Shown here one piece after another: positions 2,092 to 37,800 of a stretch of 64,000 bases of DNA. The translations under genes and the position numbers were made by a program. The DNA is taken from contig JACPNJ010000005.1 of NCBI GenBank assembly GCA_016185545.1, positions 167,754-231,753 on the forward strand, written 5' to 3'. The notes beneath the pieces are model-generated. The model worked only from the letters and a program-made list of their open reading frames with translations. It was not told where the DNA came from and did no database searches. Within the stretch, counting starts at the first letter, position 1, and every line of letters begins with the position of its first letter. Source of the DNA: Candidatus Yanofskybacteria bacterium (GTDB lineage: Bacteria > Patescibacteriota > Minisyncoccia > 2-02-FULL-40-12 > IGHO2-01-FULL-4-A).

Positions 2092-3015
2092 CTAAGCGGA
2101 TAAATTATTTTCGGCCTGTATTACTTGATTTAATTCGTTGTCTGAAATGTGGTGGACATGTTTGTCGCTTGGAAATCTTTTTTCTTTTACGGCTTTGACA
2201 TACCATCGAAAAGCATCCAGGGTCGCTTCTCCGACGGTAATGCCCTGTCTCTCCGTAAGATATTTTTCAAAGTGGATCGGCGGATTACCCGGCCATTCAA
2301 AAAATCCAAGCAAATCCGAACTGATAACAAGCTGGCCGTCAAGTTTGCGGCCGGCGGCGATGCCAAATACTGGAATATTAACTTTTGATTTCAGCATTTC
2401 GGCCACCTCTTCAGTAACCGCTTCAATTAAAATCATGCAGGCACCCGCTTTTTCGGCTTCAACGATTACTTTGCTTAATTCCAAAAAACTTTCTCTTGTC
2501 TTACCTTGAGTTCTGTAACCCCCGAGCATTTCAGCTTTATTCGGATTTAAGCCGATATGGGCTACCACCAGGCAAGCATTGGCAACGGCTTCAATGCGAT
2601 CAATATAGTTAAGATTGATTTCTTCTTTTACCGCATTGCAACCCCCTTCCTTGATAAAGCGCAAGGCATTGCGTACCGCTTCTTCTTTTGAAACCTCATA
2701 CGAACCAAGCGGCATATCGCCGACAACGAACAATCTGTCCGTACCTCTTCTCACCGCTTGGGTAAACATAATCATCTCGTCCATTGTCTCCGGTAAAGTA
2801 TTGGCCCGACCCTGCAGGGTCATACTCACAGAATCACCGACAATAATCATATCCCCGCCAGCTCTATCAAATAAACGGGCATGTAGAGCATCATAAATGC
2901 TCAGGGCACAAATAATTTCGGGGTCCGGCCTCTTTTTTTTCATGTCATGCAAAGTCTTAATAGTCACCCGTTTGGTTTTTGACTGAAGGGGAATGGCGCT
3001 TTTTTCGTCAGACAT
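2092..3015 (-). CDS. panB: 3-methyl-2-oxobutanoate hydroxymethyltransferase (ketopantoate hydroxymethyltransferase)
   Basis: PanB motifs MIIVGDSVSMTLQG, VVGDMPLGSY, VVAHIGLNPN. Confidence 0.7.
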   Translation of the reverse strand: MSDEKSAIPLQSKTKRVTIKTLHDMKKKRPDPEIICALSIYDALHARLFDRAGGDMIIVGDSVSMTLQGRANTLPETMDEMIMFTQAVRRGTDRLFVVGDMPLGSYEVSKEEAVRNALRFIKEGGCNAVKEEINLNYIDRIEAVANACLVVAHIGLNPNKAEMLGGYRTQGKTRESFLELSKVIVEAEKAGACMILIEAVTEEVAEMLKSKVNIPVFGIAAGRKLDGQLVISSDLLGFFEWPGNPPIHFEKYLTERQGITVGEATLDAFRWYVKAVKEKRFPSDKHVHHISDNELNQVIQAENNLSA

Positions 3016-3106
3016 TATTCTTCTCCTTTATGTAAAAGAGCGTCAATTCACAAAACAAGTAAACCAAATGTGTGTTTAAAAGTCAAAAACCCCTAATGGG
3101 GTTTAT

Positions 3107-4768
3107 CTAATCAAGTATTTTAAAAGGTTCGTCTTTCTTTTGCGGCTTTGGCGGCGGGGGTATCAGCCCGCCTTGCGGCAAACCGCCTAGCATCGGCGTT
3201 GTCGCTTGAGACATTGTTCTCTTGGGCTCGTAAAGACGCTCGCCGGGAGCATGTTTCTTGTACTCCAACTCTATGCTTCTGCGGATATTTAGCAGAAGAC
3301 TTACAATTGAAAATTTCATCGGATATATTTTGAAAACATTCAGATAACCCTTAACGAAAAAATAAAAAATGAAATAAAGTTTTGCCAGAGGCAGTTTGAA
3401 CAGAAATTCGGCAAATTTCCTGGAATATAAGAACGGGAAAGCAAGAAATACCGTTCCCAGCAACGACATGTTGCTTTGCATTCTTTTTTCCAGTGGGGTA
3501 AAACAATTTAACGGACTCTCGTTTTGATAACTTGCGTTAAGATTACCGAAATCAGAATAATCAAACCAGCCGTTTTCTACCACATAGTCGGAAAGTTCAC
3601 AGCCCGGATAAGGATAAACGGGCGAGAATTCTCCGAAAGTAACTTTGGATTTTATATTCAACTCCAAAGAATCAAAATCGTAATCAATCGCCGTTTTTCC
3701 CTGCTCGGTCATTACTTCACTTTTTATCGGAATGGCCAAGATTGAATTGGCAAAAGTTTTGACGCCCATTTCATTGCAAAGCGCGAAGGCCTCTTCAATT
3801 TCAGGCCGGGTCATGTGGCGTTTTATGATTTTTTCTCTGATATAATCGTTGCCCGACTCAATGGACATTGTTAATGAATGAAGGCCGGCTTTCTTCAGGG
3901 CGGTAAGATTCTCTCTGGTCAAAACGTTGCATCGCGTTAAGCAGAAAAACGGCAGGCCGACTTCTTGAGGGTAAATTTCGGCAAATTCAGCAAGCCAAAA
4001 ATCAACGCTCCGGCTTAAAATAAACATATCGTCATAAAATTTAATGAACTGGGTAGGATACCTGTGTTTTAATTCTTTAAGTTCGGCGCATAATCGTCTA
4101 GGAGAATATCTTCTGTATATCGAACCCAAACCGCGCTGCTGGATGTTCGTTTTGGGTTCAAAACAATAAGTACATTCAAACGGACAGCCCCACGAACTCA
4201 TGAAACAGCGCATTGGAAATTTGCCTAAATGCGTTTTGCTGTAAACAATCTCTCTGTCATAAAAAGGTAGCCCATCCAGAGGGTGAGTTAATTTGTGTCT
4301 GAAACGATTCCGATTCGCTTCCGTTTCGTTTTTCCATTTGGAAAGCCAAGTCTCTCTGGTAAAAATATTAGGAATATTACCGGCATCTTCTCCGGCCTGT
4401 AAAGCTTTAAGCAGTTTTGGCCAAGCAACATCGCATTCGCCTACACCAATCGCGTTTAAATCGCTTTCTTCAATAATATCGGGATTGAAGGTCGGATGAG
4501 GCCCACCCATAATTGTAATAATATTTTTGGAATAATCCTTTACTTTGTCGTTAGCTTTCAGAAAAAATTGCTGTTCGCCAGTTTTTACACTGCAATGTGC
4601 GACTATATCCGGTTTGATACGCTTTAATTCTTCGCCCAAGTCGTCCTGACTCAAAACGGTTAAAAATGTCGCGAATCCTTCCCGTTTTGCCAAGGCTGAC
4701 ATCAGCATTACACCCATCGGGTCAATGTAATCAACGTTATTTACAACAAAAAGAATTTTGTCGGCCAC
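3107..4768 (-). CDS. B12-binding domain radical SAM enzyme (class B radical-SAM methyltransferase-like)
   Basis: N-terminal B12-binding-like fold, then a CxxxCxxC cluster (WGCPFECTYCFEP); 553 aa with a Pro-rich C-terminal tail. Confidence 0.75.
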   Translation of the reverse strand: MADKILFVVNNVDYIDPMGVMLMSALAKREGFATFLTVLSQDDLGEELKRIKPDIVAHCSVKTGEQQFFLKANDKVKDYSKNIITIMGGPHPTFNPDIIEESDLNAIGVGECDVAWPKLLKALQAGEDAGNIPNIFTRETWLSKWKNETEANRNRFRHKLTHPLDGLPFYDREIVYSKTHLGKFPMRCFMSSWGCPFECTYCFEPKTNIQQRGLGSIYRRYSPRRLCAELKELKHRYPTQFIKFYDDMFILSRSVDFWLAEFAEIYPQEVGLPFFCLTRCNVLTRENLTALKKAGLHSLTMSIESGNDYIREKIIKRHMTRPEIEEAFALCNEMGVKTFANSILAIPIKSEVMTEQGKTAIDYDFDSLELNIKSKVTFGEFSPVYPYPGCELSDYVVENGWFDYSDFGNLNASYQNESPLNCFTPLEKRMQSNMSLLGTVFLAFPFLYSRKFAEFLFKLPLAKLYFIFYFFVKGYLNVFKIYPMKFSIVSLLLNIRRSIELEYKKHAPGERLYEPKRTMSQATTPMLGGLPQGGLIPPPPKPQKKDEPFKILD

Positions 4769-5193
4769 ATTTCACCTTCTCTCCAGCCATAATTTAATTT
4801 TCAAAAAACTTGTTATTGAGAGTAACACGAACTATCATATTTATCAAATTCTTCAGGGGTCAAAAATTACAAACCAAGCTCACCCCCCTAATTTTTCTTC
4901 CTGTATCATGCCTTCATTACAAATTGCGGTCACTGGCTAAATTGTCGGACACAGACCAGTTCTCCGTTTGCCGCTTGCCCGCCTAAATTTTGCTTCGCAA
5001 AACTTGGGCGGGCTGACGCGTTTTCCGACTAGTCCTAGTGTTACCCGACAATTCTTAACGCCAGTTCCCTTATTTGTATAATCGGCAGATAATGTCAGAA
5101 AAATAAGGGGGTTCCGCTTAGGTTGGGTTTGTAATTTTTTAATTTTAGAGTAATTTTGGAGATTAATTTTGGAGATTCAATCTCCAAAGAGTG

Positions 5194-5354
5194 GGCTTGG
5201 TGGGCAATGCCTCATAGCACCGTCAAAAGAGTGGGTTGCACGGTTTGCGAGCAGTATAATAGTAAAACACTGCGAGCAAAATCCACGCTTTTGACGGAAT
5301 GCAGTCCGCTCGCTGGGCGGACAAATGGTGCTATGAGACATTGCCCACCAAGCC
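5194..5354. repeat. long imperfect inverted repeat / structured non-coding element
   Basis: 'gggcttggtgggcaatgcctcatagcaccgtcaaaag' pairs with 'cttttgacgg...ggtgctatgagacattgcccaccaagccc' (~29 + 10 bp arms); internal hairpins; tandem 'aattttggagatt' x2 just upstream; no ORF. Confidence 0.55.
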
Positions 5355-5391
5355 CCGTTTAGCATTTATTAAAATGTTGTATAATAAAAAT

Positions 5392-5778
5392 ATGGAAAAC
5401 GTAAATCTAACCACAATGTTTGCCTCTGCTATTATACTCTCGGGGATTTTTGTTCTTAATTTGATTGTAGGTATGTACTACGGTTTTGGCGTTCGGCATT
5501 ACTGGTTTTTCCAGACATTGCATTTTTTGGGCGGGTTTTTTGTGGCTATGTTTTTCTCAAGCCTTTTCAACTCCACCGTTTTGATTTTAATAGGTCTTGG
5601 CGTCATCAGCATTTTGTGGGAATCGGCGGAGTTTTTGATTGCGTCTATTCCGACGCTTTCAAAATACGTAAAAGAGCAGTTCCGGCTTAAAAATGTGGAC
5701 TACAAATGGGCGGACGCCTTATTTGATCTTGCTTTAAATTCCACCGGCGCGATTCTGTTTATCTATATTTTTAAATGA
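5392..5778 (+). CDS. small integral membrane protein (hypothetical)
   Basis: hydrophobic segments; start moved to Met MENVNLTT because the 5' part of the ORF overlaps the inverted-repeat structure. Confidence 0.45.
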   Translation: MENVNLTTMFASAIILSGIFVLNLIVGMYYGFGVRHYWFFQTLHFLGGFFVAMFFSSLFNSTVLILIGLGVISILWESAEFLIASIPTLSKYVKEQFRLKNVDYKWADALFDLALNSTGAILFIYIFK

Positions 5779-15272: not shown

Positions 15273-15274
15273 AT

Positions 15275-15381
15275 CCCGTTAGAAATTAATCCTAACGGGA
15301 ATAAAAGGTATTTTATTAATATAAGATTGTGAGCTTGCCACCTGTTTAAAGTGGTGGACAGTCCGCAAAACTTCTAACGGG
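15275..15381 (+). repeat. family A palindromic junction element, copy A1
   Basis: terminal inverted repeats cccgttagaa.../...acttctaacggg; inner stem ccacctgtttaaagtggtgg; sits between the TGA of the upstream gene and an ATG. Confidence 0.8.
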
Positions 15382-15669
15382 ATGAATCCCGTACGAACCA
15401 AAACGTTCTATTATGCATATGTAATACAAAGCAATAAAGATGGGCGTTTTTATACAGGTTTTACGGTGGATTTACGGAAGCGCCTTAAGGAGCATAATGA
15501 AAGTAAGTATATTTCTTGGACAAAAGGAAGGGGACCGTTTGACCTAATTTATTATGAAGCCTGCAAAAACAAAGAAGATGCCAGGCAAAGAGAAAAATAT
15601 CTTAAAACAGGACGAGGCAAGCGCTTTATTAAAGAAAGATTAAGGCGCTTCCTGGTTCGTACGGGATGA
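15382..15669 (+). CDS. GIY-YIG nuclease superfamily protein (YhbQ/COG2827-like, 95 aa)
   Basis: YYAYVIQSNKDGRFYTGFTVDLRKRLKEHN = GIY-YIG motif block; the ORF runs exactly between the 12-bp inverted repeats. Confidence 0.8.
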   Translation: MNPVRTKTFYYAYVIQSNKDGRFYTGFTVDLRKRLKEHNESKYISWTKGRGPFDLIYYEACKNKEDARQREKYLKTGRGKRFIKERLRRFLVRTG

Positions 15670-17319: not shown

Positions 17320-18258
<939 letters not shown>

Positions 18259-18260
18259 AT

Positions 18261-18381
18261 CCCGTACGAGACACAATGAGTAAACACACAAAAATGGCCG
18301 GTGGCCGGAGTGTCTTTACTGGATAAAATGATAAACTAACTAGGCACGGTTGCGACAGAGTCGCAACCTGTCTCGTACGGG
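18261..18381 (+). repeat. family B palindromic junction element, copy B1
   Basis: terminal inverted repeats cccgtacgagaca.../...tgtctcgtacggg; internal ggttgcgacagagtcgcaacc hairpin; TGA-element-ATG placement. Confidence 0.8.
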
Positions 18382-19431
18382 ATGAAAATATGTTATCTAA
18401 ATATAACCAGGGAAATCCCCCAGCGGGATGTAGTTTATATAAACGGGTTAAAGGAAAATGGTGTTGAAGTAATAGAAATTTTAGATAATTCGCCAAAGTT
18501 AAAAAAATTCTGGCATATTTTTAAAAAACATCGCGCCTTAAACAACAACTACGACATTTTGTGGGTCGGATATTCTGCCCACATACTTGCGCCCTTCGCC
18601 CGTTTAATTTCCAGAAAAAAAATAGTTTTCAACGCACTCTGCTCATTGTACGAGGGACTGATTATATCGCGCAAACAAGCGCCACGGTTTTCACCAAAAG
18701 CTTTTTTGGTTTGGTTACAGGATTTTTTGTCATTTCATTGTTCCTCGTTAATACTTGTGGAAAGCGAGGAACAAAAAAAATTCCTTATCAAAAAGTTTTT
18801 TCTGAAAGAAAAAAAACTGCAAAAAGCTTGGACGGGAGTTAATGACAGGGACTTTTTTTATAATCCGGCAATCAAAAAATCGCCTGTCTTTTCTATAATT
18901 TTTCGCGGCGGATTTCTTCCCGAATCAGGAATTGAACACGTTGCTGAAGCCGCCTCACTTCTTCAAGATGAGAACATACGATTCAGAATTATAGGCACCG
19001 GTGTTATGGAAGATGCCCTAATCAACAAGCTCGCTACTTTTAATTCTAAAAATGTTGAATTTATTTCCGAAAAAATCAAAAGAGTCAGCCGCCCCGAACT
19101 TAACATTAAAATGCAGGAATGCCACATATCGTTAGGCCAGTTATCTGACCACGACCGCCTGAATAGAACCATTCCTCATAAGGCATTCGAGAGTATGGTT
19201 ATGAAAATTCCATATTTGACCGCGCGCAATAAAGCCGTACTGGAATTATTCGCCGAAAACGAAACTTGCTTTTGCTGTAACCCGGCTGACTCTCGTGATT
19301 TGGCCGATAAAATTATTTGGATAAAAAATAATTATGAAACGGCTCAAAAAATCGCCGAAAACGCTTATCAATTATACTCACGCGAACTAACCCCGAAAAT
19401 ACTTGCGAAAAAGGTATTAGAATTGTTTTGA
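18382..19431 (+). CDS. family 1 (GT4-like) glycosyltransferase
   Basis: GT-B C-terminal domain FISEKI...; 349 aa. Confidence 0.6.
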   Translation: MKICYLNITREIPQRDVVYINGLKENGVEVIEILDNSPKLKKFWHIFKKHRALNNNYDILWVGYSAHILAPFARLISRKKIVFNALCSLYEGLIISRKQAPRFSPKAFLVWLQDFLSFHCSSLILVESEEQKKFLIKKFFLKEKKLQKAWTGVNDRDFFYNPAIKKSPVFSIIFRGGFLPESGIEHVAEAASLLQDENIRFRIIGTGVMEDALINKLATFNSKNVEFISEKIKRVSRPELNIKMQECHISLGQLSDHDRLNRTIPHKAFESMVMKIPYLTARNKAVLELFAENETCFCCNPADSRDLADKIIWIKNNYETAQKIAENAYQLYSRELTPKILAKKVLELF

Positions 19432-21348: not shown

Positions 21349-22440
21349 TTACCCTTTTTTATTTAGATTACTTAATATAACATCAATTTCTTTTTTAGCC
21401 ATGTCAAGTGTTATATTTTTCACATCGCCATCGGTACCCTTGAGAACGCGATTAAGTGATCCTGGCGGGCGGTGATACTCTCGCTCATCGGTGGGCCCAA
21501 CTAAGACAAGGTTAGCCACATCAAAGGCATCAGCCGTTACCATTGGGCCGGAATCATTGCCTATGACAAGATCACACTTTGAAATCGCGGCCTTAAATTC
21601 ATCTAGGTTTTGATTAAGCAGGTTAACCGCCGGAACGCCGTCTAAAACCGCGAGCATTGCTGTTATCGGCCCCTCATCTTTACCGGCACCAACAAGCAAA
21701 ATCTTAGCGTTTTGTTCTTCGTAAAAAAATTTAGCTAATTCAGCAAATCTTTCCGCCGGCCACCAGCGCTCGGGCACCGCGCCACCCGGCGCAAAAGCAA
21801 CAATAAAATCGTCCACCGACATATTATTTTGAGTGAAAACATTGTTGATTTTATTTTCAGCTTCTTTGGAAAAATATAACCGGAAATGAGCATCGCCGGT
21901 ATTGGCATTAATTGGCTCCAGCAACTTAAGATATTGTGGCGGGACATATTGACCGGTATAAAACGGCGATGTGATTGCAAATGTTTTTAGAATTGAATAA
22001 GAAACCGAAGTATCTCCTTTGCCGCTCTCGAGTGAAAAAGTAGAAATGGTTTTAATGCCGGCAAGGTATAGCAGAGCAAAACCCATTGTACTGCCAAGAT
22101 TGGCCAAACAAGCAAAATCAATTTTTTCTTTTTTTAATAGTTTAACGACGGTCCAAAAGTTATTTTCGTAATTTATATATTTATCTATATCCGGGTTGTG
22201 TCTGATCACTTCTTCTACCCGACCAGCACCAATAACATATAGTCTGCTATCTGGATACCTGGTCTTAATGGCCCTGAACATGGGCGTGATATAAACAACA
22301 TCGCCCATGTGCGGTTTCCAGCGCAAGATAAGAATCCTTTTGGGGTTTGAGGTAATTTTTTTTGCTCTGCCGCGGAATAAATAATATAAAAGACACAATA
22401 ATAAACTGCCAAGATTTGTAAATTTACTGGATAATTTCAT
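21349..22440 (-). CDS. family 9 glycosyltransferase (ADP-heptose:acceptor heptosyltransferase-like)
   Basis: ILILRWKPHMGDVV and LVIGNDSGPMV GT9 motifs. Confidence 0.75.
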   Translation of the reverse strand: MKLSSKFTNLGSLLLCLLYYLFRGRAKKITSNPKRILILRWKPHMGDVVYITPMFRAIKTRYPDSRLYVIGAGRVEEVIRHNPDIDKYINYENNFWTVVKLLKKEKIDFACLANLGSTMGFALLYLAGIKTISTFSLESGKGDTSVSYSILKTFAITSPFYTGQYVPPQYLKLLEPINANTGDAHFRLYFSKEAENKINNVFTQNNMSVDDFIVAFAPGGAVPERWWPAERFAELAKFFYEEQNAKILLVGAGKDEGPITAMLAVLDGVPAVNLLNQNLDEFKAAISKCDLVIGNDSGPMVTADAFDVANLVLVGPTDEREYHRPPGSLNRVLKGTDGDVKNITLDMAKKEIDVILSNLNKKG

Positions 22441-22547
22441 CCCGTTAGAAGTTTTGCAAACCGGCCACCACTTTGAACAGGTGGCAAACTCACAAATTTT
22501 ATATCAATAAATGCCCTTTATTCCCGTTAGGATTAACTTCTAACGGG
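22441..22547 (-). repeat. family A element, copy A2
   Basis: near-identical reverse complement of A1. Confidence 0.8.
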
Positions 22548-22549
22548 AT

Positions 22550-23407
22550 TCATTTCCTTAAAGTTACGCAAGCCACTGCTCTGGCGGCGGCCACCCCGTC
22601 ATCGTTAATTTTTTTGCCGGTACGGATGTTAAAATATTCCAAACCATCGCATTGCTCCTGTTCACTTATCTGCCAACCATCTTTTGAGTACTTATAGAAA
22701 ACAGTATTAAATTCGGCGGCGCCGAAAGCATCGGCAACTTTTTGCACCATTTGTGAATTAAACTGCTGAAAAAAACCATGGTTTTCGTATCGGCCGAACG
22801 GTACGGTAATAAAAAGTGTTCCGCCCGGCTTCAACATTCTTTTCATTTCAAGAACCGCCGGCAGATAATCGCCGCTGTTTTCCTTGAACCGGTTTTCACC
22901 GGTATATATTTGCGTGTTATCCATTCCTATATGCTCAAGAGTGGAGACACAGGAAATTATATCAAAATTATCGCTTTTGAATGGTGCTTTTCTTATATCG
23001 CTATAAACATACGATACTCCTTTATTCCAAAAACAATTTGATTCCGGATTGAGATTCATTATAAAAAGATTCTTGGGGACAATATTTTTATGTTCAATAA
23101 TTTCCTTAAAATTAAGGGCCGAACCGGCATCCAACATTTCCACACGGTCACCACCGATTTGGGAAATAACCCATGGAATTTCAATGATTCTTTCATCAAT
23201 TCCAATGCCATATTTTTCGGGCAACTTCCCATTATTTTTAAACAGTCTCGATAGTTCATTATTTTTAAGAACTGCGCCAATTTCACGCCATTTATATTCA
23301 AAATAACCCCTGCTCCAAGGCTTGCGGCCGTGCAATTCGTAGGATAATAAATTTCTTCTAGCAATTAAACTTTTTGCAAAATATCTTAATTTTTTGTTAA
23401 ACCCCAT
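22550..23407 (-). CDS. SAM-dependent methyltransferase
   Basis: class I methyltransferase fold (LDAGSALNF...KPGGTLFITVP). Confidence 0.6.
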   Translation of the reverse strand: MGFNKKLRYFAKSLIARRNLLSYELHGRKPWSRGYFEYKWREIGAVLKNNELSRLFKNNGKLPEKYGIGIDERIIEIPWVISQIGGDRVEMLDAGSALNFKEIIEHKNIVPKNLFIMNLNPESNCFWNKGVSYVYSDIRKAPFKSDNFDIISCVSTLEHIGMDNTQIYTGENRFKENSGDYLPAVLEMKRMLKPGGTLFITVPFGRYENHGFFQQFNSQMVQKVADAFGAAEFNTVFYKYSKDGWQISEQEQCDGLEYFNIRTGKKINDDGVAAARAVACVTLRK

Positions 23408-23512
23408 CCCGTTAGAAGTTTTGCAGACCGTCCACCACTTTAAACAGGTGGCAAGTTCACAAGCCTTATATCAATAAATACTTTTTCCCCGTTAGGCTTA
23501 ACTTCTAACGGG
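23408..23512 (-). repeat. family A element, copy A3
   Basis: same termini and interior as A2. Confidence 0.8.
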
Positions 23513-23513
23513 A

Positions 23514-24725
23514 TTAAGCAATACAAATGAAAACTTTACTAAAAATCTCGTTAATCGGCTTCTGATATTTTATCACGAAAAGTTCGCCGTTGTCGTAAAT
23601 TTGGAACACGGTTTTATTGAGGCCCAAGAGCGGTTCCCAAATTTTATTATAAAACCAGCTTGCTTTGGTAAACCGGAAATCGTCATTGTTTGAATAAATC
23701 TGGTTTTCGGAATTGTAGTGGTAGTTGAAGTCCCTTTCGGTTATAAACCCGAGCTGCCTGTTACGCCGATGATATGACAGAAAACAATTTTCAAGAAAAT
23801 CCACTTGGGAAAAAGATATTATCATATCATCCGGATTGACATTCATTTTTTTAACGGCCAAAGCGATTTTGAAATTATTAAATAATTTGCGCGGTTCCAA
23901 TGAATAAAAGATTCTTGGAAAAAATTTAATCTCATCAAAGTACTCCCTTATATCGTCTGGTTTTACAAAATCCCAGCGAGGATGGCGGGAAACGACCAAG
24001 TTTATCTTGGTACTAGGCAAAAAAGACCTTATAAAACGCGCCAGGGATACCGCACTAACCACAAACTCCGTATGCGAAAGGACAAACCAAACTTTACCGT
24101 GAAAATCGGAAAATAGTTCGCGTATATTACGCTCAAAAAGTTCATCTTTTGCGGTGGCTATTCTATTTTCAACAAGCTCTTGTTTGAGGTCGGTTATAAA
24201 AAGTGAGCTTGGCACTTTTGCAAAATATGTTTCGGTAGTCTCAAAGTACTTGTCATTATAGACATTTTTAAAAAGCCGATAAAATAGGTAAGCATTCAGA
24301 CCGAAGCTATAGGCGGAAACCGCCGATGTTGAGTTCACGGCAAAAACACATTTAATTTTTGGAAGATTTTGCCACAAAAACAGTTCAGCCGTTGTTTTGT
24401 CTTGGATTAAATTAAAACCATTTAAGTTTAAAAATAATTGTTTTTTTTCATCAGATGGATGCGGTTTATAATAAAGATCGTACCCACCAAAATTCCGGCG
24501 AATATAATCAAGGCACTCGTTGCATTTAGCAACATAAAACTCCTTGTCTGCAAAACCTGAAGCCAGAATGCCTTTCATATCACTGCCCATAAAAACAACC
24601 ATTTTCGCGCTAAAACCGCTTTTAGAATCCGGTTCTTTTTTGTTTAAACTCAACAAATGAGGCAGTGAAATCCTGACGACATTATTTATTTTTTTATTTA
24701 TACCGACAAATTTTCTTATATCCAT
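23514..24725 (-). CDS. hypothetical GT-B-like transferase with a KPHP motif (paralog of 36483..37706)
   Basis: shares CLDYIR...YDLYYKPHP..FLNL with 36483..37706; HP motif as in CMP-sugar/CDP-alditol transferases. Confidence 0.45.
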   Translation of the reverse strand: MDIRKFVGINKKINNVVRISLPHLLSLNKKEPDSKSGFSAKMVVFMGSDMKGILASGFADKEFYVAKCNECLDYIRRNFGGYDLYYKPHPSDEKKQLFLNLNGFNLIQDKTTAELFLWQNLPKIKCVFAVNSTSAVSAYSFGLNAYLFYRLFKNVYNDKYFETTETYFAKVPSSLFITDLKQELVENRIATAKDELFERNIRELFSDFHGKVWFVLSHTEFVVSAVSLARFIRSFLPSTKINLVVSRHPRWDFVKPDDIREYFDEIKFFPRIFYSLEPRKLFNNFKIALAVKKMNVNPDDMIISFSQVDFLENCFLSYHRRNRQLGFITERDFNYHYNSENQIYSNNDDFRFTKASWFYNKIWEPLLGLNKTVFQIYDNGELFVIKYQKPINEIFSKVFICIA

Positions 24726-24845
24726 CCCGTATGAGACAGGCTGTGATTCTGTCGCAACCGTACCTAGTTAGTTTATCATTGTATCCCGTAAAGACACTTC
24801 GGCCACCAGACCTTCTTGTGTGTTTACCCTTCGTGTCTCGTACGG
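24726..24845 (-). repeat. family B element, copy B2
   Basis: cccgtatgagaca...tgtctcgtacgg; the interior matches the reverse complement of B1. Confidence 0.8.
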
Positions 24846-24871
24846 AATCCATGAGTAAATCTCCGAAAGCC

Positions 24872-26107
24872 CTATTTAGTTTTATAAGCAATGAAGTCTA
24901 CGTGACGAACACCGCATGCACCCTTGAAGAGGTGTTTACATGAATCAATATATGCCTTGACTTCATGTAGGTCTGAATTTTTAACCAAATATACAAATTG
25001 CTTCGCTTCTTTAATAAATTCTGATAACCGAGTTTGCAATGGCTCTAAAACCGATACTTCCTCAAAAGACATATCAACCGCATCAGCTAAATTATTAAAT
25101 TTATCCGCATTAAGTTGAGACTTGGAATTGAAATTTGCAACATAACTGGTCAAGTCTGATAATTCCTTTGAATATTTAAGATAGCCCCCGCCTAGCGCTT
25201 TAACATTTTCCAAATCACCATCTTTTTGTAACAGCCATACGGTTTCTGCAAGAGCAGGCATTCCCGGTATTTCGGCAACATCAAACTTTAACTTATGATG
25301 CACGGAATCTCCAATTACTGGCATTAAAAATGGCGGATAACTTGAATAAAGTTTCAAATTATTTTCTTTTAGCCATTTTAATGTCTCCGCTACGGAAGGA
25401 TCGTCTTGGCTTTGAATTACCCAACGGTCAAATATTATTGCTCTTCGGGTCCGTTTGATAGCCACCTGACTTCGGTCAATATCTTCCTTAAAAAGTTTTT
25501 CACATACATCCACCATATCATCCGGCGATTTGGCATAGTGATACACAGCAAAACGCTGAAGCATGTTTTGAAAACCACCTGCTTTATTAGGATCCCCAAA
25601 AATTAGAAAACCGCCCGGTTTAAGAAATTTGGCAATTTTCTTGAACGCTCCCCGGTTATCTGCAGTATGACTCAAAACTCCTCTACAATGGACGATATCG
25701 TACTTTACAGATGAATCATAATCAAAAATAGATGATTTGATAAACTTGTGCGTACCGCCATTAGAATAGCGCTTAAAAACTTTTTTTGCTATGGCAAGCG
25801 CTTGATCGTTCATCTCTACAAGCGTGCATTTGGCGCCCCATCGCGCTAAAGAAATCGTATTCTCTCCGGTACCAGCACCGAAGTCAATAAGATTGGCATT
25901 AGCAAACATTTTCGGCGGAAATTTAAACAAATCTCTATACATGTATAGCACATTAGCCGTATACTGACGGAATTCTTTTTCTGATTTATCAGAAAAATAA
26001 ATTGAGGGGATTTCCTCCTGAAATGTGCCGAGGGTAGCTTGTTCGACCCGCTTGATTTTAGCAAGTCTTATAGTTTTACTCTTGTGTTTAGTTGATATTT
26101 TTTTCAT
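24872..26107 (-). CDS. SAM-dependent methyltransferase
   Basis: LIDFGAGTGENTISLA motif I; 411 aa. Confidence 0.6.
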   Translation of the reverse strand: MKKISTKHKSKTIRLAKIKRVEQATLGTFQEEIPSIYFSDKSEKEFRQYTANVLYMYRDLFKFPPKMFANANLIDFGAGTGENTISLARWGAKCTLVEMNDQALAIAKKVFKRYSNGGTHKFIKSSIFDYDSSVKYDIVHCRGVLSHTADNRGAFKKIAKFLKPGGFLIFGDPNKAGGFQNMLQRFAVYHYAKSPDDMVDVCEKLFKEDIDRSQVAIKRTRRAIIFDRWVIQSQDDPSVAETLKWLKENNLKLYSSYPPFLMPVIGDSVHHKLKFDVAEIPGMPALAETVWLLQKDGDLENVKALGGGYLKYSKELSDLTSYVANFNSKSQLNADKFNNLADAVDMSFEEVSVLEPLQTRLSEFIKEAKQFVYLVKNSDLHEVKAYIDSCKHLFKGACGVRHVDFIAYKTK

Positions 26108-26213
26108 CCCGTTAGAAGTAGCAACAGCGACAAAAGTTTTAATTACGGCCGCAGTGTCTACTTGAAAAAAAATAACTTTAATTCGTGAACCCGCTAGGTC
26201 TACTTCTAACGGG
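26108..26213 (-). repeat. family A variant element, copy A4
   Basis: same 12-14-bp termini cccgttagaagtag/ctacttctaacggg; different interior. Confidence 0.7.
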
Positions 26214-26226
26214 ATACATTATTAAA

Positions 26227-27360
26227 TTAATCGCAGTAGCTTTCAAGCTTACTATCCCGAACCGTATCAAGAGTACTGCAATGAATACCACCCATAAAAT
26301 AAGAATGCCTGAATGATATCGGGATAGGAGTAATTCCGTGTTTCTCAAGTATTTTCATAAGAGGAATCTGAATTTTATCTACAATGACATGCCCGGGATC
26401 AATGGATAAAAAATTCATTCCAATCCAAGGAGAACTGATGGAGCCAAGGCCGGATTTAACTCCCAGCTTTTCAAGTTCCAGATGAGCCGGTTTTCTGACC
26501 TTTTCGTGAATATCCAAGGTCCTCTGTGGCGTCGGAACAATATCGGAAAAATATATCTTGTCCCATTTTTCAAAAACCGGCGGACAGGTCTCGGGACTGA
26601 CCCGTGTAGCATTCAGCATAACCAGACCCGGACGCAATGCCATGGCTGTTGAATCTATGTGGCTTGAGCGATAGATCTCGCTCGTAGTATGGACCCTATA
26701 TTCATCACCCAAAACACTCTGGAGCCATTTGGCGCCGATATTATTACCGGACCGAGAAACAAGATATAAAAGATCCTTGCCCATTCTTAAAGTATTAGCG
26801 GCTTCAAATAATATCTCATCTTCAGTCAGTCGTGTGTATTTTTGTCCGTCATCATATTGGGATTTACCCTCAACGGTATAAACTTCCATGTGGTCGCCTG
26901 GCACGCGCGGCTTAGGACCGGCTACCCACCTAAAACCGCCTTCTTTAAAATACTCGTACAAAACCGGATATAAACCCATGGCTTCAAAATACCTGTGCTG
27001 TTCCTGCGACGGTGATTCAATGACATTACCGCCGACCACTAAATGCAGATCCCTCATATTATAGACATGGTCACCGACTGCGGAGAAAAATGGTGTCGTA
27101 AATAATTTATTGTTATGGGAAATATCGGGACGAAACACTTTCACGCCAAACGATTTTAAAACATTACAAAGCCCCTCTAAATCTTCGTTAATTTCATCAG
27201 TAAGCCACTGGGGATAAGCCTGGCGGGCTAATTTAACTGATTTTTCTAAAAGATCTTCTGAAACTAAGCCATGTTTAAATACCAAGGGAGCATGGCCATC
27301 TCCCCGGCCAACAATTATTTCTCTCAATTTATCCCACTCATTGTGGCTGTTTATTTTCAT
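26227..27360 (-). CDS. amidinotransferase-family protein
   Basis: N-terminal INSHNEWDKLREIIVG (amidinotransferase signature) and C-terminal GGIHCST catalytic-Cys motif. Confidence 0.65.
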   Translation of the reverse strand: MKINSHNEWDKLREIIVGRGDGHAPLVFKHGLVSEDLLEKSVKLARQAYPQWLTDEINEDLEGLCNVLKSFGVKVFRPDISHNNKLFTTPFFSAVGDHVYNMRDLHLVVGGNVIESPSQEQHRYFEAMGLYPVLYEYFKEGGFRWVAGPKPRVPGDHMEVYTVEGKSQYDDGQKYTRLTEDEILFEAANTLRMGKDLLYLVSRSGNNIGAKWLQSVLGDEYRVHTTSEIYRSSHIDSTAMALRPGLVMLNATRVSPETCPPVFEKWDKIYFSDIVPTPQRTLDIHEKVRKPAHLELEKLGVKSGLGSISSPWIGMNFLSIDPGHVIVDKIQIPLMKILEKHGITPIPISFRHSYFMGGIHCSTLDTVRDSKLESYCD

Positions 27361-27483
27361 CCCGTTAGAGGCAGGTTACGCTCTTTGAGCGTAACCGTAC
27401 CCAAATAGTTTAAATGATAATTCCCGTTTGTATGTTTCTTGCACCGCTATTCTTGATTAATTGCCTGTTGTGCCTCTAACGGG
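27361..27483 (-). repeat. family A variant element, copy A5
   Basis: termini cccgttagaggc/gcctctaacggg; internal ggttacgctctttgagcgtaacc hairpin. Confidence 0.7.
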
Positions 27484-28584
27484 ACGAGTCATCATTCTCA
27501 TTATATTAGCATGGTCTTCTCTGGCAATCTCGTATTTGCTTTTATTCAACTGGCTTGGATCATCCCGTACGAGACAGGTTGCGACCCTGTCGCAACCGTG
27601 CCTAGTTAGTTTATCATTATCTCCAACAGGGACACTCCGACCACCGGCCTTTTTTGTGTGTTTATTCGTCGTGTCTCGTACGGGATCATCCCTAGGAAAC
27701 ATATTGGATTTAAAACCGCATTCAACGCCCAATTGACTTAAAATCTTAAGAGTACTGTCATTGTAAGAATTGGCAGGATGGGCCATGTCCACGGGCGGCC
27801 TGCCGCAAACTCTTTGTATGTGTTCATAATTTTTTTGATACTCTTCTTGCTGTCGTTCAAAAGGAAGTTCGGCAAGCATCATGGGGTGTGAATATGAATG
27901 CAGTCCGATTACATGGCCTTGCCTATTTAAGTAAGCAAGGTTTTCATTTGACATCCATATGTTTTTAGAAAGATCGGCCAAATTCAACCCTTGGTCTTGA
28001 ATAATCGCATCCATAATTATTTCAAATTCCTCACGGCTTAACACGCGATCCCTAATCAAACGAAAGCGCATGTCATTGGTTGAGTAAAACGGGAAAGTCT
28101 TGGAATACCTTACCATATCGGTCTCTTCTAAAACTTTCCTGGCATTATTTCCAAATTTTGATTGAAAAATTTTATCAAAAAAAATATTGTAAAAGTCATC
28201 AATATCTTTAAAAAACTTAGAGCGAAAAACCCGATAAATTTCAAATTTGCCAAGGCCGCCCTCAAATACACTGGAATAGACGAACCAAAATGCTTTTAGG
28301 TTGTACTTGTCCAAAACCGGCAAGACAACATCAAATTGACATAATAGCCCATCATCCAGGGTTATGCAAACATCCCGATTGGTTAATTGGTTCGCCCCCA
28401 ATCGCTTAAGCCATTCTTTAGGATCAAGTATCCGATCTAATCCTACAAACATAAGAATGGCTTCAAAATCCGACATTGATATCGAACCTTGCCCTTTGTA
28501 ATGTTTCCGTTCGTCATGAAAATGATGGAACATTATCCCGTGAGCAACCGAACTGAGATATTTTTTTTTAGATAATTCGCTCAA
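27457..28584 (-). CDS. polysaccharide deacetylase (NodB-homology domain); the 3' ~230 nt of the ORF reads through elements B3 and A5
   Basis: ITLDDG NodB motif and HSYSHP His motif; the frame stays open through the repeat elements, so the true C-terminus is uncertain. Confidence 0.6.
   Translation of the reverse strand: MSELSKKKYLSSVAHGIMFHHFHDERKHYKGQGSISMSDFEAILMFVGLDRILDPKEWLKRLGANQLTNRDVCITLDDGLLCQFDVVLPVLDKYNLKAFWFVYSSVFEGGLGKFEIYRVFRSKFFKDIDDFYNIFFDKIFQSKFGNNARKVLEETDMVRYSKTFPFYSTNDMRFRLIRDRVLSREEFEIIMDAIIQDQGLNLADLSKNIWMSNENLAYLNRQGHVIGLHSYSHPMMLAELPFERQQEEYQKNYEHIQRVCGRPPVDMAHPANSYNDSTLKILSQLGVECGFKSNMFPRDDPVRDTTNKHTKKAGGRSVPVGDNDKLTRHGCDRVATCLVRDDPSQLNKSKYEIAREDHANIMRMMTRPVRGTTGN
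27564..27684 (-). repeat. family B element, copy B3
   Basis: cccgtacgagaca...tgtctcgtacggg; in tandem with A5. Confidence 0.8.
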
Positions 28585-29725
28585 TTTTTTTAATATCTAA
28601 ATAATCCTCGGAAGAAAAACTTAAACCCGAGGTAATTTTTTGAAAGCCCTCGTAAAAACGCGGCTCACTGACAAGGTTATGAATATTGGCAGTTGGTACA
28701 AGAATCAACATTTCATTATTAACCCATGCTTCTTTATTGGAGTCGTTGGAACCCATAAGAGCTTCGTGCAGTTTGTCGCCGACACGATCTCCAATGTATT
28801 TTATTTTTATCACAGCCCCAGAAGACCGCTGCTTCAGTCGTGGATGATTGGGTCTTCTGGGGCTGGATTCCGCCCCACGGTCAAGCCGCCAAGCTTGACT
28901 GTGGGTGATGGTACCACGGGCTTGGCCGTGGGGCTCCATTTTTTTTCCAGAGTAATATTTTTTTATAAATATACTGGCTAGATCTCCCAAGCGGATTGAC
29001 GGCATTTTCAAAATAAAAATTTCACCGCCCGAACAAAGCTGGGCCGCTTTCAGAGTCAAACTAACGGCTTGTTTTATGGACATGAGAAAGCGGGTCGCGT
29101 CTTTGTTGGTAACATTAATCGCGCCGCTGGCTTCTACTTGTTTTACCCACATCGGCAGTACTGAACCATCGGCCCAGGCAACATTGCCGAATCTTACACA
29201 GGCAAGCTTCATTTTATCTCCCAGAAAAAAACTGGAATTTATAAAAAGCTTCTCCATCATAAGCTTGGAAGCGCCAAGCACATTTAAGGGGTTGGCAACT
29301 TTATCCGTGGAAATGGCAATAATTTTTTCAACACCGGCGTGCAAAGCCGCGTCAATAATATTATGTGAACCGACAATGTTAGTTTTCATCGCTTCTGACG
29401 GATTATACTCGCAAAACGGAACATGTTTTAAGGCGGCGGCGTGAAAAACTATGTCTACATTTTTAAAAGCAAGATGTAAACGCTCTTGGTCTCTTATGTC
29501 TCCAATCAACATCCTTAAGTTTTTTGGGTAACGAAGCGCCTCCAATAGGTGGTATTGGCGTGTTTCATTTCTGGATAAAACCCTGATCTGCTTCGGCTTG
29601 GACTTTAAAAGCTGGCGAACCAGTTCTGCGCCAATACTACCAGTGCCTCCAGTTACCAAAATGGTTTTATTTTGAAACTCGTTAATCATAGAAAACAACT
29701 TAAAAATGCAAACCTCAAATCTCAA
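28568..29725 (-). CDS. UDP-GlcNAc 4,6-dehydratase (PseB/FlaA1/CapD-like), with an in-frame 43-aa insertion
   Basis: ILVTGGTGSIG...VLSRNE...HAAALKHVP...YIGDRVGDKLHEAL; 385 aa versus ~335 for homologs. Confidence 0.75.
   Translation of the reverse strand: MRFEVCIFKLFSMINEFQNKTILVTGGTGSIGAELVRQLLKSKPKQIRVLSRNETRQYHLLEALRYPKNLRMLIGDIRDQERLHLAFKNVDIVFHAAALKHVPFCEYNPSEAMKTNIVGSHNIIDAALHAGVEKIIAISTDKVANPLNVLGASKLMMEKLFINSSFFLGDKMKLACVRFGNVAWADGSVLPMWVKQVEASGAINVTNKDATRFLMSIKQAVSLTLKAAQLCSGGEIFILKMPSIRLGDLASIFIKKYYSGKKMEPHGQARGTITHSQAWRLDRGAESSPRRPNHPRLKQRSSGAVIKIKYIGDRVGDKLHEALMGSNDSNKEAWVNNEMLILVPTANIHNLVSEPRFYEGFQKITSGLSFSSEDYLDIKKIERII
28811..28939 (-). repeat. GC-rich triple-hairpin element inserted in-frame in a coding sequence
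   Basis: 129 nt at ~62% GC versus ~40% background; stems gccccagaagacc/ggtcttctggggc, cccacggtcaagc/gcttgactgtggg, ccacgg/ccgtgg. Confidence 0.6.
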
Positions 29726-35680: not shown

Positions 35681-35768
35681 AAATTCAAAAAGCAAATCTC
35701 AAATCTCAAAATCTAATTTATAATTAAAAACTTTCATTTTGGATTTTGAGATTGAAATTTTGAATTTT
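35681..35768. repeat. 'caaatctcaaaat' AT-rich palindromic hairpin (empty copy of the 4HB-module inverted repeat)
   Basis: gcaaatctcaaatctcaaaatc ... gattttgagattg. Confidence 0.65.
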
Positions 35769-37706: not shown

Positions 37707-37715
37707 GAGTAGAAT

Positions 37716-37800
37716 AATTTAAACCTCAAATCTCAAAACTCAAAATTTAAATTTTGAATTTTAAATTACATTTTGAGATTTGAGATTTGCATTTTGAATT
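37716..37800. repeat. 'caaatctcaaaat' AT-rich palindromic hairpin (second empty copy)
   Basis: aacctcaaatctcaaaactcaaaattt ... cattttgagatttgagatttgcatttt. Confidence 0.65.

Follow-up and report, generated by a model that had tools for sequence, protein, structure and literature searches.

A short inverted-repeat element lies in frame in a polysaccharide deacetylase gene of a Candidatus Yanofskybacteria bacterium and belongs to a family with a GIY-YIG coding member

The question raised by this locus is where a polysaccharide deacetylase gene ends when two short repeat elements lie at its 3' end, and to which kind of element these repeats belong. The locus is part of a stretch of 64,000 nucleotides of a Candidatus Yanofskybacteria bacterium (contig JACPNJ010000005.1, positions 167,754 to 231,753), here called the window. 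An original prediction had placed two elements, A5 and B3, back-to-back between the deacetylase gene and an amidinotransferase gene, with the deacetylase frame reading through both to 27457 as a 76-aa C-terminal extension. Investigation of the locus confirmed that two inserted repeat elements are present, delimited by their terminal inverted repeats at 27359-27485 (A5) and 27562-27686 (B3), that the open reading frame (ORF) runs on the minus strand from 28584 to 27457, and that the gene labels are correct (Polysacc_deac_1 domain; StrB1-like amidinotransferase, PDB 1bwd); a gap of 76 nt, however, separates the elements, and B3 is located within the coding sequence of the deacetylase. Both elements are short, non-coding members, similar to MITEs (transposable elements of the miniature inverted-repeat kind), of a family with a GIY-YIG coding member. 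The reading considered probable here is that these relatives of a GIY-YIG cassette are spread by the GIY-YIG protein and that B3 sits in frame in a deacetylase that is translated.

The B3 insertion and the native end of the deacetylase

The deacetylase ORF (27457-28584, minus strand) has 375 codons counted from the TTG given in the ORF list, and its Pfam domain, Polysacc_deac_1, ends at residue 288. Homologues are 305-360 aa long and span 93-99% of the 375-aa query. B3 (27562-27686, minus strand) is the span between the inverted-repeat ends ATCCCGTACGAGACA...TGTCTCGTACGGGAT, the repeat being perfect over 15 nt and 95% matched over 20 nt. The inserted block, 27564-27689, comprises 126 nt or 42 codons and translates as DDPVRDTTNKHTKKAGGRSVPVGDNDKLTRHGCDRVATCLVR. 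Alignment of the deacetylase with 119 homologues, a check proposed with the original prediction, left these 42 columns empty in 119 of 119 homologues, and in a smaller alignment of the query and 15 other sequences the same 42-residue block was unmatched. As every homologue runs on beyond the B3 position into a C-terminal segment that is conserved, B3 is an insertion in frame and within the gene, the native C-terminus of the deacetylase lying downstream of it. The homologues extend about 25 residues beyond this position and all 119 align after the insert to (D)DPSQLNKSKYEIAREDHANIMRMM, with the E, R and D of EIAREDH invariant; residues encoded by B3 itself were found in none of them.

Comparison with a relative lacking the elements led to the same result. 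The closest relative, P0002 (71% identity), is encoded on a 2.3-kb contig (L001) with an orthologue of the amidinotransferase next to it, and both element sites are empty there. The empty B3 site in L001 reads ...AAC ATG TTT CAG CAA GAT GAT CTG GGC CAA TTA AAT..., while the site in the window reads AGG G[ATGAT]CCCGT...ACGGG[ATGAT]CCA, in which 121 nt and a 5-nt repeat make up the 126 nt. The ATGAT direct repeats flanking B3 are on the minus strand at 27685-27689 (the upstream copy in gene sense, ATCAT on the plus strand) and 27559-27563 (the downstream copy). The target of B3 is a start-codon look-alike, an out-of-frame ATGA within GAT-GAT, 26 codons before the gene end. In gene sense the junction is GGGATGATCCCGT, whereas the usual form, ATGAATCCCGT, has one A more, and its TGA is out of frame, as had been read directly in the sequence by the original prediction. 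Owing to this ATGAT junction, shorter by one base (126 vs. the usual 127 nt), the deacetylase stays in frame; the 126-nt form may have arisen at the insertion itself or through the loss of one base afterwards. The frame used (PVRD...LVRD) is the sole stop-free sense frame of B3, and one of the other two copies of type B in the window has it open as well (thus two of three B copies); from these two copies B3 is 10-18% diverged (90.4% identity to the copy at 18259 and 81.6% to the copy at 24724). Folded as single-stranded DNA (ssDNA), B3 reaches -31.4 kcal/mol (z = -6.4).

The 76 nt between the elements (27486-27561) encode the conserved native C-terminus with the core QLNKSKYEIAREDHANIMRMM; the native 3' coding segment (27486-27558, minus strand), encoding P-SQLNKSKYEIAREDHANIMRMMT, is supported by the alignments, the L001 comparison and the AlphaFold model. 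The 77 codons after NMFPR are made up of 42 from B3, 26 of the native C-terminus and 9 from A5, so that the residues taken for a 76-aa extension are an insert, a native terminus and a short tail, and the suggestion that the real gene ends earlier does not hold. Among the 26 post-insert codons 16 are identical to L001, seven differ synonymously and three non-synonymously; the differences within the 21-residue core comprise seven synonymous and no non-synonymous changes. A model built by AlphaFold on the 119-homologue alignment had a mean predicted local distance difference test (pLDDT) score of 87.8 and a predicted template modelling (pTM) score of 0.86, with pLDDT of 34-57 in the insert, at least 90 in its flanks and about 91-92 in the post-insert segment; the insert is thus modelled with low confidence, as fits a disordered stretch looping out of a fold that is confidently predicted elsewhere. 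Sequence and model together suggest that the deacetylase is made as one protein with a 42-residue disordered surface loop, a constrained C-terminal segment and nine foreign residues as a tail.

Regarding A5, this element (27359-27485, minus strand; ends ATCCCGTTAGAGGCA...TGCCTCTAACGGGAC) occupies the true junction of the deacetylase and amidinotransferase genes. Its terminal inverted repeat extends over 17 nt at 94%; the ends are of type A (CCCGTTAGAG) and the interior is B-like, with about 60% identity and the same internal hairpin, kept via paired changes (GGTTGCGAC/GTCGCAACC vs. GGTTACGCT/AGCGTAACC). The amidinotransferase gene (26227-27360, minus strand) had no Pfam or NCBIfam match, its identity coming from a PDB sequence search (1bwd, 8.6e-69). 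A5 is an insertion at the start codon of this gene: the ATG (27358-27360) consists of the terminal AT of A5 and the next G, the L001 orthologue begins at the same residue, and in L001, without A5, the deacetylase TAA is followed by 14 nt and then by the amidinotransferase. The upstream end of A5 is degenerate (GTCCCGT, without an adjacent ATGA), and as this junction has decayed the deacetylase runs nine codons further, RPVRGTTGN, to a TAA stop within A5 (27457-27459, minus strand). The ORF thus reads through all of B3 as predicted, but enters only 29 nt of A5. Likewise, the predicted loss of a native stop by insertion does not apply to B3 and applies in a minor way to A5, to which the gene owes its last nine codons and its stop.

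The deacetylase has the same protein sequence as NCBI entry MBI2670096.1, which belongs to a metagenome-assembled genome of Candidatus Yanofskybacteria (contig of 339 kb) and is annotated as 358 aa from 28533 (the Met of MFHHFHD) with the B3 insert included. Since homologues conserve about 10 residues before this Met (xYPxxIxHGIMFHHFH; 28533-28584), the true start is probably further upstream, still inside the ORF, which has an overlap with the end of the gene of a CapD-like dehydratase. The deposited protein holds 42 repeat-derived residues and a repeat-derived tail of nine residues, and annotation pipelines will spread such chimeras. Taken alone the local result is a correction at the level of annotation, but it brings to light an element family that behaves very regularly and is apparently undescribed.

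The element family, its coding member and its target

The end motif ATCCCGTWNGAR, searched across the window with 100 shuffles as control, gave 23 matches against 3.6 expected, a number reached by none of the shuffles. Eighteen of the 23 pair into nine elements, all within 15.2-27.7 kb and all oriented as their flanking genes, and eight of the nine adjoin a downstream start codon. The family ends are ATCCCGT(TAGA/ACGA)...ACGGGAT. Eight of the elements are short copies of 105-127 nt, none with a full-length gene. Apart from A5 and B3 these are the A-type elements at 15273-15383 (plus strand, in tandem with the coding member and sharing one ATGA with it), 22439-22549 and 23406-23514 (both minus strand, at gene junctions) and 26106-26215 (minus strand, directly 5' of the start codon of gene 24872-26107), and the B-type elements at 18259-18383 (plus strand, at a gene junction with the upstream gene ending at 18258 and the next ATG at 18382) and 24724-24848 (minus strand, directly 5' of the start codon of gene 23514-24725). 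Stable ssDNA folds were found for A5 and the B copies (z = -5.7 to -7.6) and for one A-type copy (z = -3.7), and some A-type copies hold a compact hairpin, ATCCCGTTAG-N9-CTAACGGGA. Scanning the complete window for Rfam families and for tRNAs found nothing. The nine elements are confined to a 12.5-kb stretch of glycan biosynthesis genes, including methyltransferases, a GT9 glycosyltransferase, the amidinotransferase and the deacetylase, with none in the other 51 kb; this clustering resembles that of the NTS repeats around Neisseria surface genes.

The ninth element, the coding member (feature 15382-15669, element 15386-15667, plus strand), is 282 nt long, has the ends ATCCCGTACGAACCA...TGGTTCGTACGGGAT and is filled by an ORF of 95 aa whose start is the ATG of the left ATGA and whose stop is the TGA of the right ATGA. 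The only domain of the protein (MBI2670084.1) is GIY-YIG (PF01541, 8.8e-17, residues 10-77). The element ends encode the protein termini, MNPVR... and ...VRTG before the stop, that is, the termini are the inverted ends read as codons, and they are conserved across homologues as N-terminal MNPVR (ATG AAT CCC GTx xGA) and C-terminal FLxLTG or FLVRTG followed by the stop (...CTA/CGT ACG GGA TGA). The same contig carries a second GIY-YIG gene (P0141).

A scan of one genome per species for full-length loci returned 491 loci in species-representative genomes, the best 80 of which were kept for analysis. These best 80 are mostly from Patescibacteria, with a few from Omnitrophota, Planctomycetota and Desulfobacterota-type genomes, and their DNA ends are nearly invariant, ATGAATCCCGTTAGAGnCA...TGnCTCTAACGGGATGA. 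The ends of the short copies are shared by the element at 15386-15667 and by 73-76 other full-length copies. Short copies were collected in a metagenome scan (at least 120 stretches), and their interiors are unrelated between genomes. With 157 short and 76 full-length copies pooled, the terminal repeat is 14 nt family-wide (ATCCCGT-TAGA/ACGA-nnn), and the bases at its variable positions 10-12 match between the two ends in 93-97% of copies, where independent ends would be expected to match in 47-69%; the two ends thus evolve as a pair. GIY-YIG cassettes outside Patescibacteria (L042-L044, L054, L058-L060, L063, L069, L071 and L081), from Omnitrophota, Planctomycetota, Syntrophales and Thermodesulfobacteriota, have extended ends, ACCCCGT...ACGGGGT, and most are without ATGA flanks, which points to another target or to variants specific to certain lineages. 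Start-codon-associated GIY-YIG cassettes and their short derivatives in Patescibacteria were not described in the literature searched; one paper merely lists GIY-YIG proteins among the genes donated by Patescibacteria to other organisms.

Regarding the target, flanks were counted in 126 short metagenome copies. The form ATGA/.../GAAn (with the element between the slashes) was found in 71 of the 126, with the variants ATGG/.../GGAn and ATGT/.../GTAT; as the variable fourth base recurs on both sides, the flanking duplication derives from the target. The right-hand AT and the next G open an ORF of at least 60 codons in 112 of the 126 short copies, vs. 19% at random positions, and in 47 of 49 full-length copies, while the left-hand TGA is the stop of the upstream gene in 13 of the 126. 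The rule of insertion is directly 5' of a start codon, and the fit from stop to start seen in the window is due to the tight packing of the operon. The canonical junction, ATGNA/T-CCCGT...ACGGG/ATGNA, which adds 127 nt in the case of a B copy, was found in 131 of 197 copies and the shorter ATGAT/CCCGT junction, adding 126 nt, in 11 of the 197; ATGAT is duplicated on both sides in four of the five elements with the right-hand repeat ATGAT, the same four having the shorter form.

An ATGA is formed anew at the right end of every insertion, which accounts for true tandems, namely that of 15273-15383 and 15386-15667 in the window, a tandem in L053 and a doubled MNPVR in P0160. The L053 tandem (2763-3161) consists of a full-length and a short element with one ATGAT in common, and the P0160 gene call fuses a short element with the next GIY-YIG gene (MNPVRSKNLLNSAGSPSVNRTSCG-MNPVRNT...). 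Judged from these sequences, tandem insertion into a regenerated target is common. The original prediction had taken the deacetylase locus itself for a nested or tandem insertion at a hotspot; two separate targets were used there, the internal GATGAT and the amidinotransferase start, but the idea agrees with the regenerated right-end ATGA and with the tandems elsewhere. A check of the 126 short metagenome copies for a spanning ORF gave no credible in-gene case. Two metagenome elements lying under long ORFs (L101 and L195) were rejected as in-gene copies, the ORFs being opposite to the orientation given by ATG(N) and the start codon and of implausible sequence. The notion of a cassette hijacking a host ribosome-binding site was also rejected, since Shine-Dalgarno-like motifs showed no enrichment over background upstream of either ATG, left-hand or right-hand.

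Mechanism, competing explanations and neighbouring features

The mechanism proposed for the family would start from the coding member, a cassette of about 285 nt that is almost entirely the gene of the 95-aa single-domain GIY-YIG protein. By analogy with the Ssn nucleases and their NTS/SRM hairpins, this protein would recognize the stem that the paired ends form in ssDNA and cut beside it, at ATGA, after which host repair or recombination would copy the element into new ATG(A) sites. At the sites occupied by the family the right-hand ATGN(A) copy forms the ATG of the host gene and the left-hand copy keeps the upstream TGA in tight operons. B3 lies in the deacetylase in its stop-free frame with the 126-nt junction, and the ORF is intact through B3 and stops inside A5.

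Several points weigh against this proposal. The mobility driven by the GIY-YIG protein is argued by analogy, and a hydrolytic nuclease alone cannot perform strand transfer. The published SRM search motif, HGTCWY...RNCYNB, had no match on either strand of the window, while the NTS control was matched. As regards kinship with Ssn, the nearest solved relatives of the 95-aa protein are the UPF0213 proteins 1zg2 and 1ywl, and a tblastn search of the nuclease against plasmids for a named Ssn relative gave only YazA/UPF0213-like matches. The sequence alone allows a duplication of 2, 4 or 5 nt and more than one placing of the element boundary. Regarding B3, translation of the insert is presumed from its reading frame, and the open frame may in part be luck, as the prior for a random insertion to be both in frame and open is about 1 in 5, given that the same frame is open in two of the three B copies. 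The synonymous-only pattern in the post-insert core is no proof of constraint after insertion, since the insertion may be older or younger than the split from L001.

A stronger version of the proposal is tentative, and it is held to be a real possibility rather than the expected outcome. According to it, the GIY-YIG cassette of about 285 nt would represent a new class of autonomous mobile elements and be close to the smallest known; with ends that are the protein termini, it would insert at host start codons with its stop overlapping the host ATG (ATGA), so that host translation is preserved, and B3 and A5 would be non-coding derivatives of it. If this were true, B3 would show the family to be remodelling proteins in Patescibacteria, as the Rickettsia palindromic elements (RPEs) do in Rickettsia.

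The explanation that best survives beside the favoured one is that the elements are modulators of recombination or transformation kept by the host and bracketing surface-glycan genes, rather than selfish transposons. It draws on the position of the nine copies at consecutive junctions of the polysaccharide cluster (15.2-27.7 kb, and nowhere else in 64 kb) and on the NTS repeats, which cluster near surface genes and modulate transformation (PMC11893778). It is nonetheless considered unlikely in view of the target duplication, the tandems, the in-gene copy and the lineage-differing interiors, all of which are signatures of insertion, although the two views are compatible with each other.

A deacetylase gene that is dead or dying, with B3 as a recent insertion that is unselected and in frame by chance, and with a protein that is non-functional or not made, is a somewhat more doubtful alternative. 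As the frame is intrinsically open in two of three B copies, and as 1 in 3 insertions adds a multiple of three, the intact ORF taken alone is weak evidence against it; moreover, the insert lies directly before invariant C-terminal residues, and the normal stop has also been lost, at A5. Against decay stand the lack of any other lesion in 375 codons and the post-insert core that is unchanged at the protein level despite seven synonymous changes relative to L001. The divergence of B3 from its sister copies (10-18%) speaks against a very recent event, in the AlphaFold model the insert loops out of a fold that stays intact, and the 126-nt junction, which preserves the frame, is the form of a minority of copies.

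Translational bypass is known from the mitochondrial "byp" elements and from gene 60 of phage T4, and the B3 segment could in principle be removed from the mRNA or be skipped between the GAT-GAT repeats over a stem-loop, either of which would yield a peptide spanning ...NMFPRDDPSQLNK... without the insert. Identical codons (GAT GAT) do flank B3, its terminal stem of 15-20 bp would form in RNA, and the neighbouring CapD-like gene also has an in-frame palindromic insert. This explanation is nevertheless very improbable: the insert is in frame and stop-free, hence bypass is not needed, and no stop codon follows the putative take-off site. The window gave no Rfam match and no ribozyme or intron features were seen, and all other copies of the family that were examined lie outside coding sequences or, like A5, merely abut them and do not require such a function.

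An assembly artefact, in which a repeat copy was misplaced in the gene during metagenome assembly, is scarcely credible; the genome is metagenome-assembled and the element is multi-copy, but consecutive parts of the same gene lie on both sides of a clean 5-nt duplication, B3 is a distinct copy by its identity of only 82-90% to the other B copies, and a repeat-driven mis-join would connect unrelated loci instead of making a precise insertion. Finally, the view that the native gene ended at the B3 junction, where the insertion removed its stop and made the next 76 residues a non-native extension, can be dismissed: the ATGA of intergenic copies often gives the TGA stop of the upstream gene and is out of frame here, yet 119 of 119 homologues run on for about 25 conserved residues matching the post-B3 segment of the window, and the empty site in L001 lies mid-gene.

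Regarding neighbouring features, the gene of the CapD-like dehydratase (28568-29725, minus strand) lies directly upstream of the deacetylase gene and has an in-frame insert of about 38 residues (...GQARGTITHSQAWRLDRGAESSPRRPNHPRLKQRSSGAV..., 28813-28934, minus strand). The insert consists of two GC-rich hairpins (55-61% GC vs. about 40% locally), query residues 256-305 corresponding to chain residues 246-257 in PDB 6bwc; it belongs to a different repeat family without CCCGT ends. Between the CapD-like and an aminotransferase gene lies the gene of a 123-aa four-helix-bundle "23S rRNA-intervening sequence protein" (PF05635; 29747-30118, minus strand), which we suspect to be another small selfish cassette. 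A palindromic element of 163 nt at 5193-5355 has 29-nt arms that are 97% complementary (GGGCTTGGTGGGCAATGCCTCATAGCACC...), encloses an inverted repeat of 18 nt and extends over the beginning of ORF 5299-5778; it had no Rfam match. Two AT-rich intergenic palindromes (35681-35768 and 37715-37800) with CAAATCTCAAA-type units and 38-39-nt arms that are 74-82% complementary are flanked by genes of the minus strand; they could be terminators or a further repeat family.

Comparison with known systems

Several known systems can be set aside. In integrons, attC sites have the inverse core RYYYAAC at the 5' end and the core GTTRRRY at the 3' end and lie in unidirectional cassette arrays, but here the order is reversed (GTTAGA...TCTAAC), the B-type ends are GTACGA, and copies occur with genes on both strands. 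REP/BIME and IS200/IS605-type elements are associated with an HUH tyrosine transposase, whereas the sole coding member here carries a GIY-YIG domain. An intein was ruled out on anatomy. The Seg proteins of phage T4 are free-standing GIY-YIG homing endonucleases, and the present GIY-YIG gene resembles them as a selfish cassette between host genes; Seg proteins and I-TevI, however, carry a distinct DNA-binding domain and lack inverted-repeat ends, home between homologous alleles and are not known to leave short non-coding derivatives.

Bacterial MITEs, such as the Correia elements of Neisseria, are short and non-coding, have terminal inverted repeats and a flanking duplication, occur in many copies and occasionally form in-frame fusions. 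The present family shares with them the terminal inverted repeats, the target-derived flanking duplication, the small size and multiple copies, and ends common with a coding element. Known MITEs come from insertion sequences whose transposases are of the DDE or another type, and GIY-YIG is not a known transposase type; the family differs in that its sole coding relative is a 95-aa GIY-YIG nuclease and in that the target is the start codon itself.

The RPEs are palindromic repeats of about 100-150 nt that are described as lying in frame in normal genes, translated and compatible with the fold (Ogata et al., 2000, via PMC10969869), with nearly half of the Rickettsia copies located in genes (PMC10969869). 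B3 resembles them in lying in frame in a coding gene at a fold-compatible position, a likeness of behaviour and not of membership, and it adds a further case of in-frame repeat insertion in an enzyme, outside Rickettsia. In contrast to the RPEs, an in-gene copy is the exception in the present family, which has a protein-coding member and a defined start-codon target.

The closest parallel is with the Ssn enzymes, single-domain GIY-YIG nucleases of 94 aa that bind the NTS/SRM hairpin repeats flanking their own gene and cut ssDNA just upstream of such repeats (PMC11893778). The arrangement NTS-ssnA-NTS was likened to an insertion sequence by Chenal et al. (2025, Nat Commun; PMC11893778), and for NTS-gene-NTS arrangements in Neisseria a modulation of recombination or transformation was proposed (PMC11893778). 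Both systems have a single-domain GIY-YIG protein (94 aa there and 95 aa here), a nuclease gene bracketed by an inverted-repeat motif that is also scattered near genes, a common TCCCG...CGGGA core, an oriented stretch of a few bases just upstream of the stem (CGTCA in Ssn and ATGA here) and repeats clustered around surface-related genes. The repeats are seldom found in genes in either, at 2% in Ssn and here as B3 against no credible case among the 126 short copies. The present family differs in that the arms of one inverted repeat form the two ends of the gene and encode its termini, start and stop, in place of two complete hairpins, in that its short copies are of 105-127 nt with unrelated interiors whereas the Ssn repeats are 30-nt hairpins, in that copies lie exactly at start codons with ATGN duplicated, and in its Patescibacteria hosts, which are not mentioned in the main text of PMC11893778. 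The family may therefore be said to resemble Ssn/SRM in its apparent workings, with membership in the Ssn clade (cd10448) unproven. A family that lands on start codons, regenerates its target and keeps both neighbouring genes readable is tied to a 95-aa nuclease of a type shown in other phyla to cut ssDNA beside hairpins, and it opens to testing two questions left by the Ssn study (PMC11893778), namely whether such nucleases move their own repeats and which role the repeats have near surface-glycan genes.

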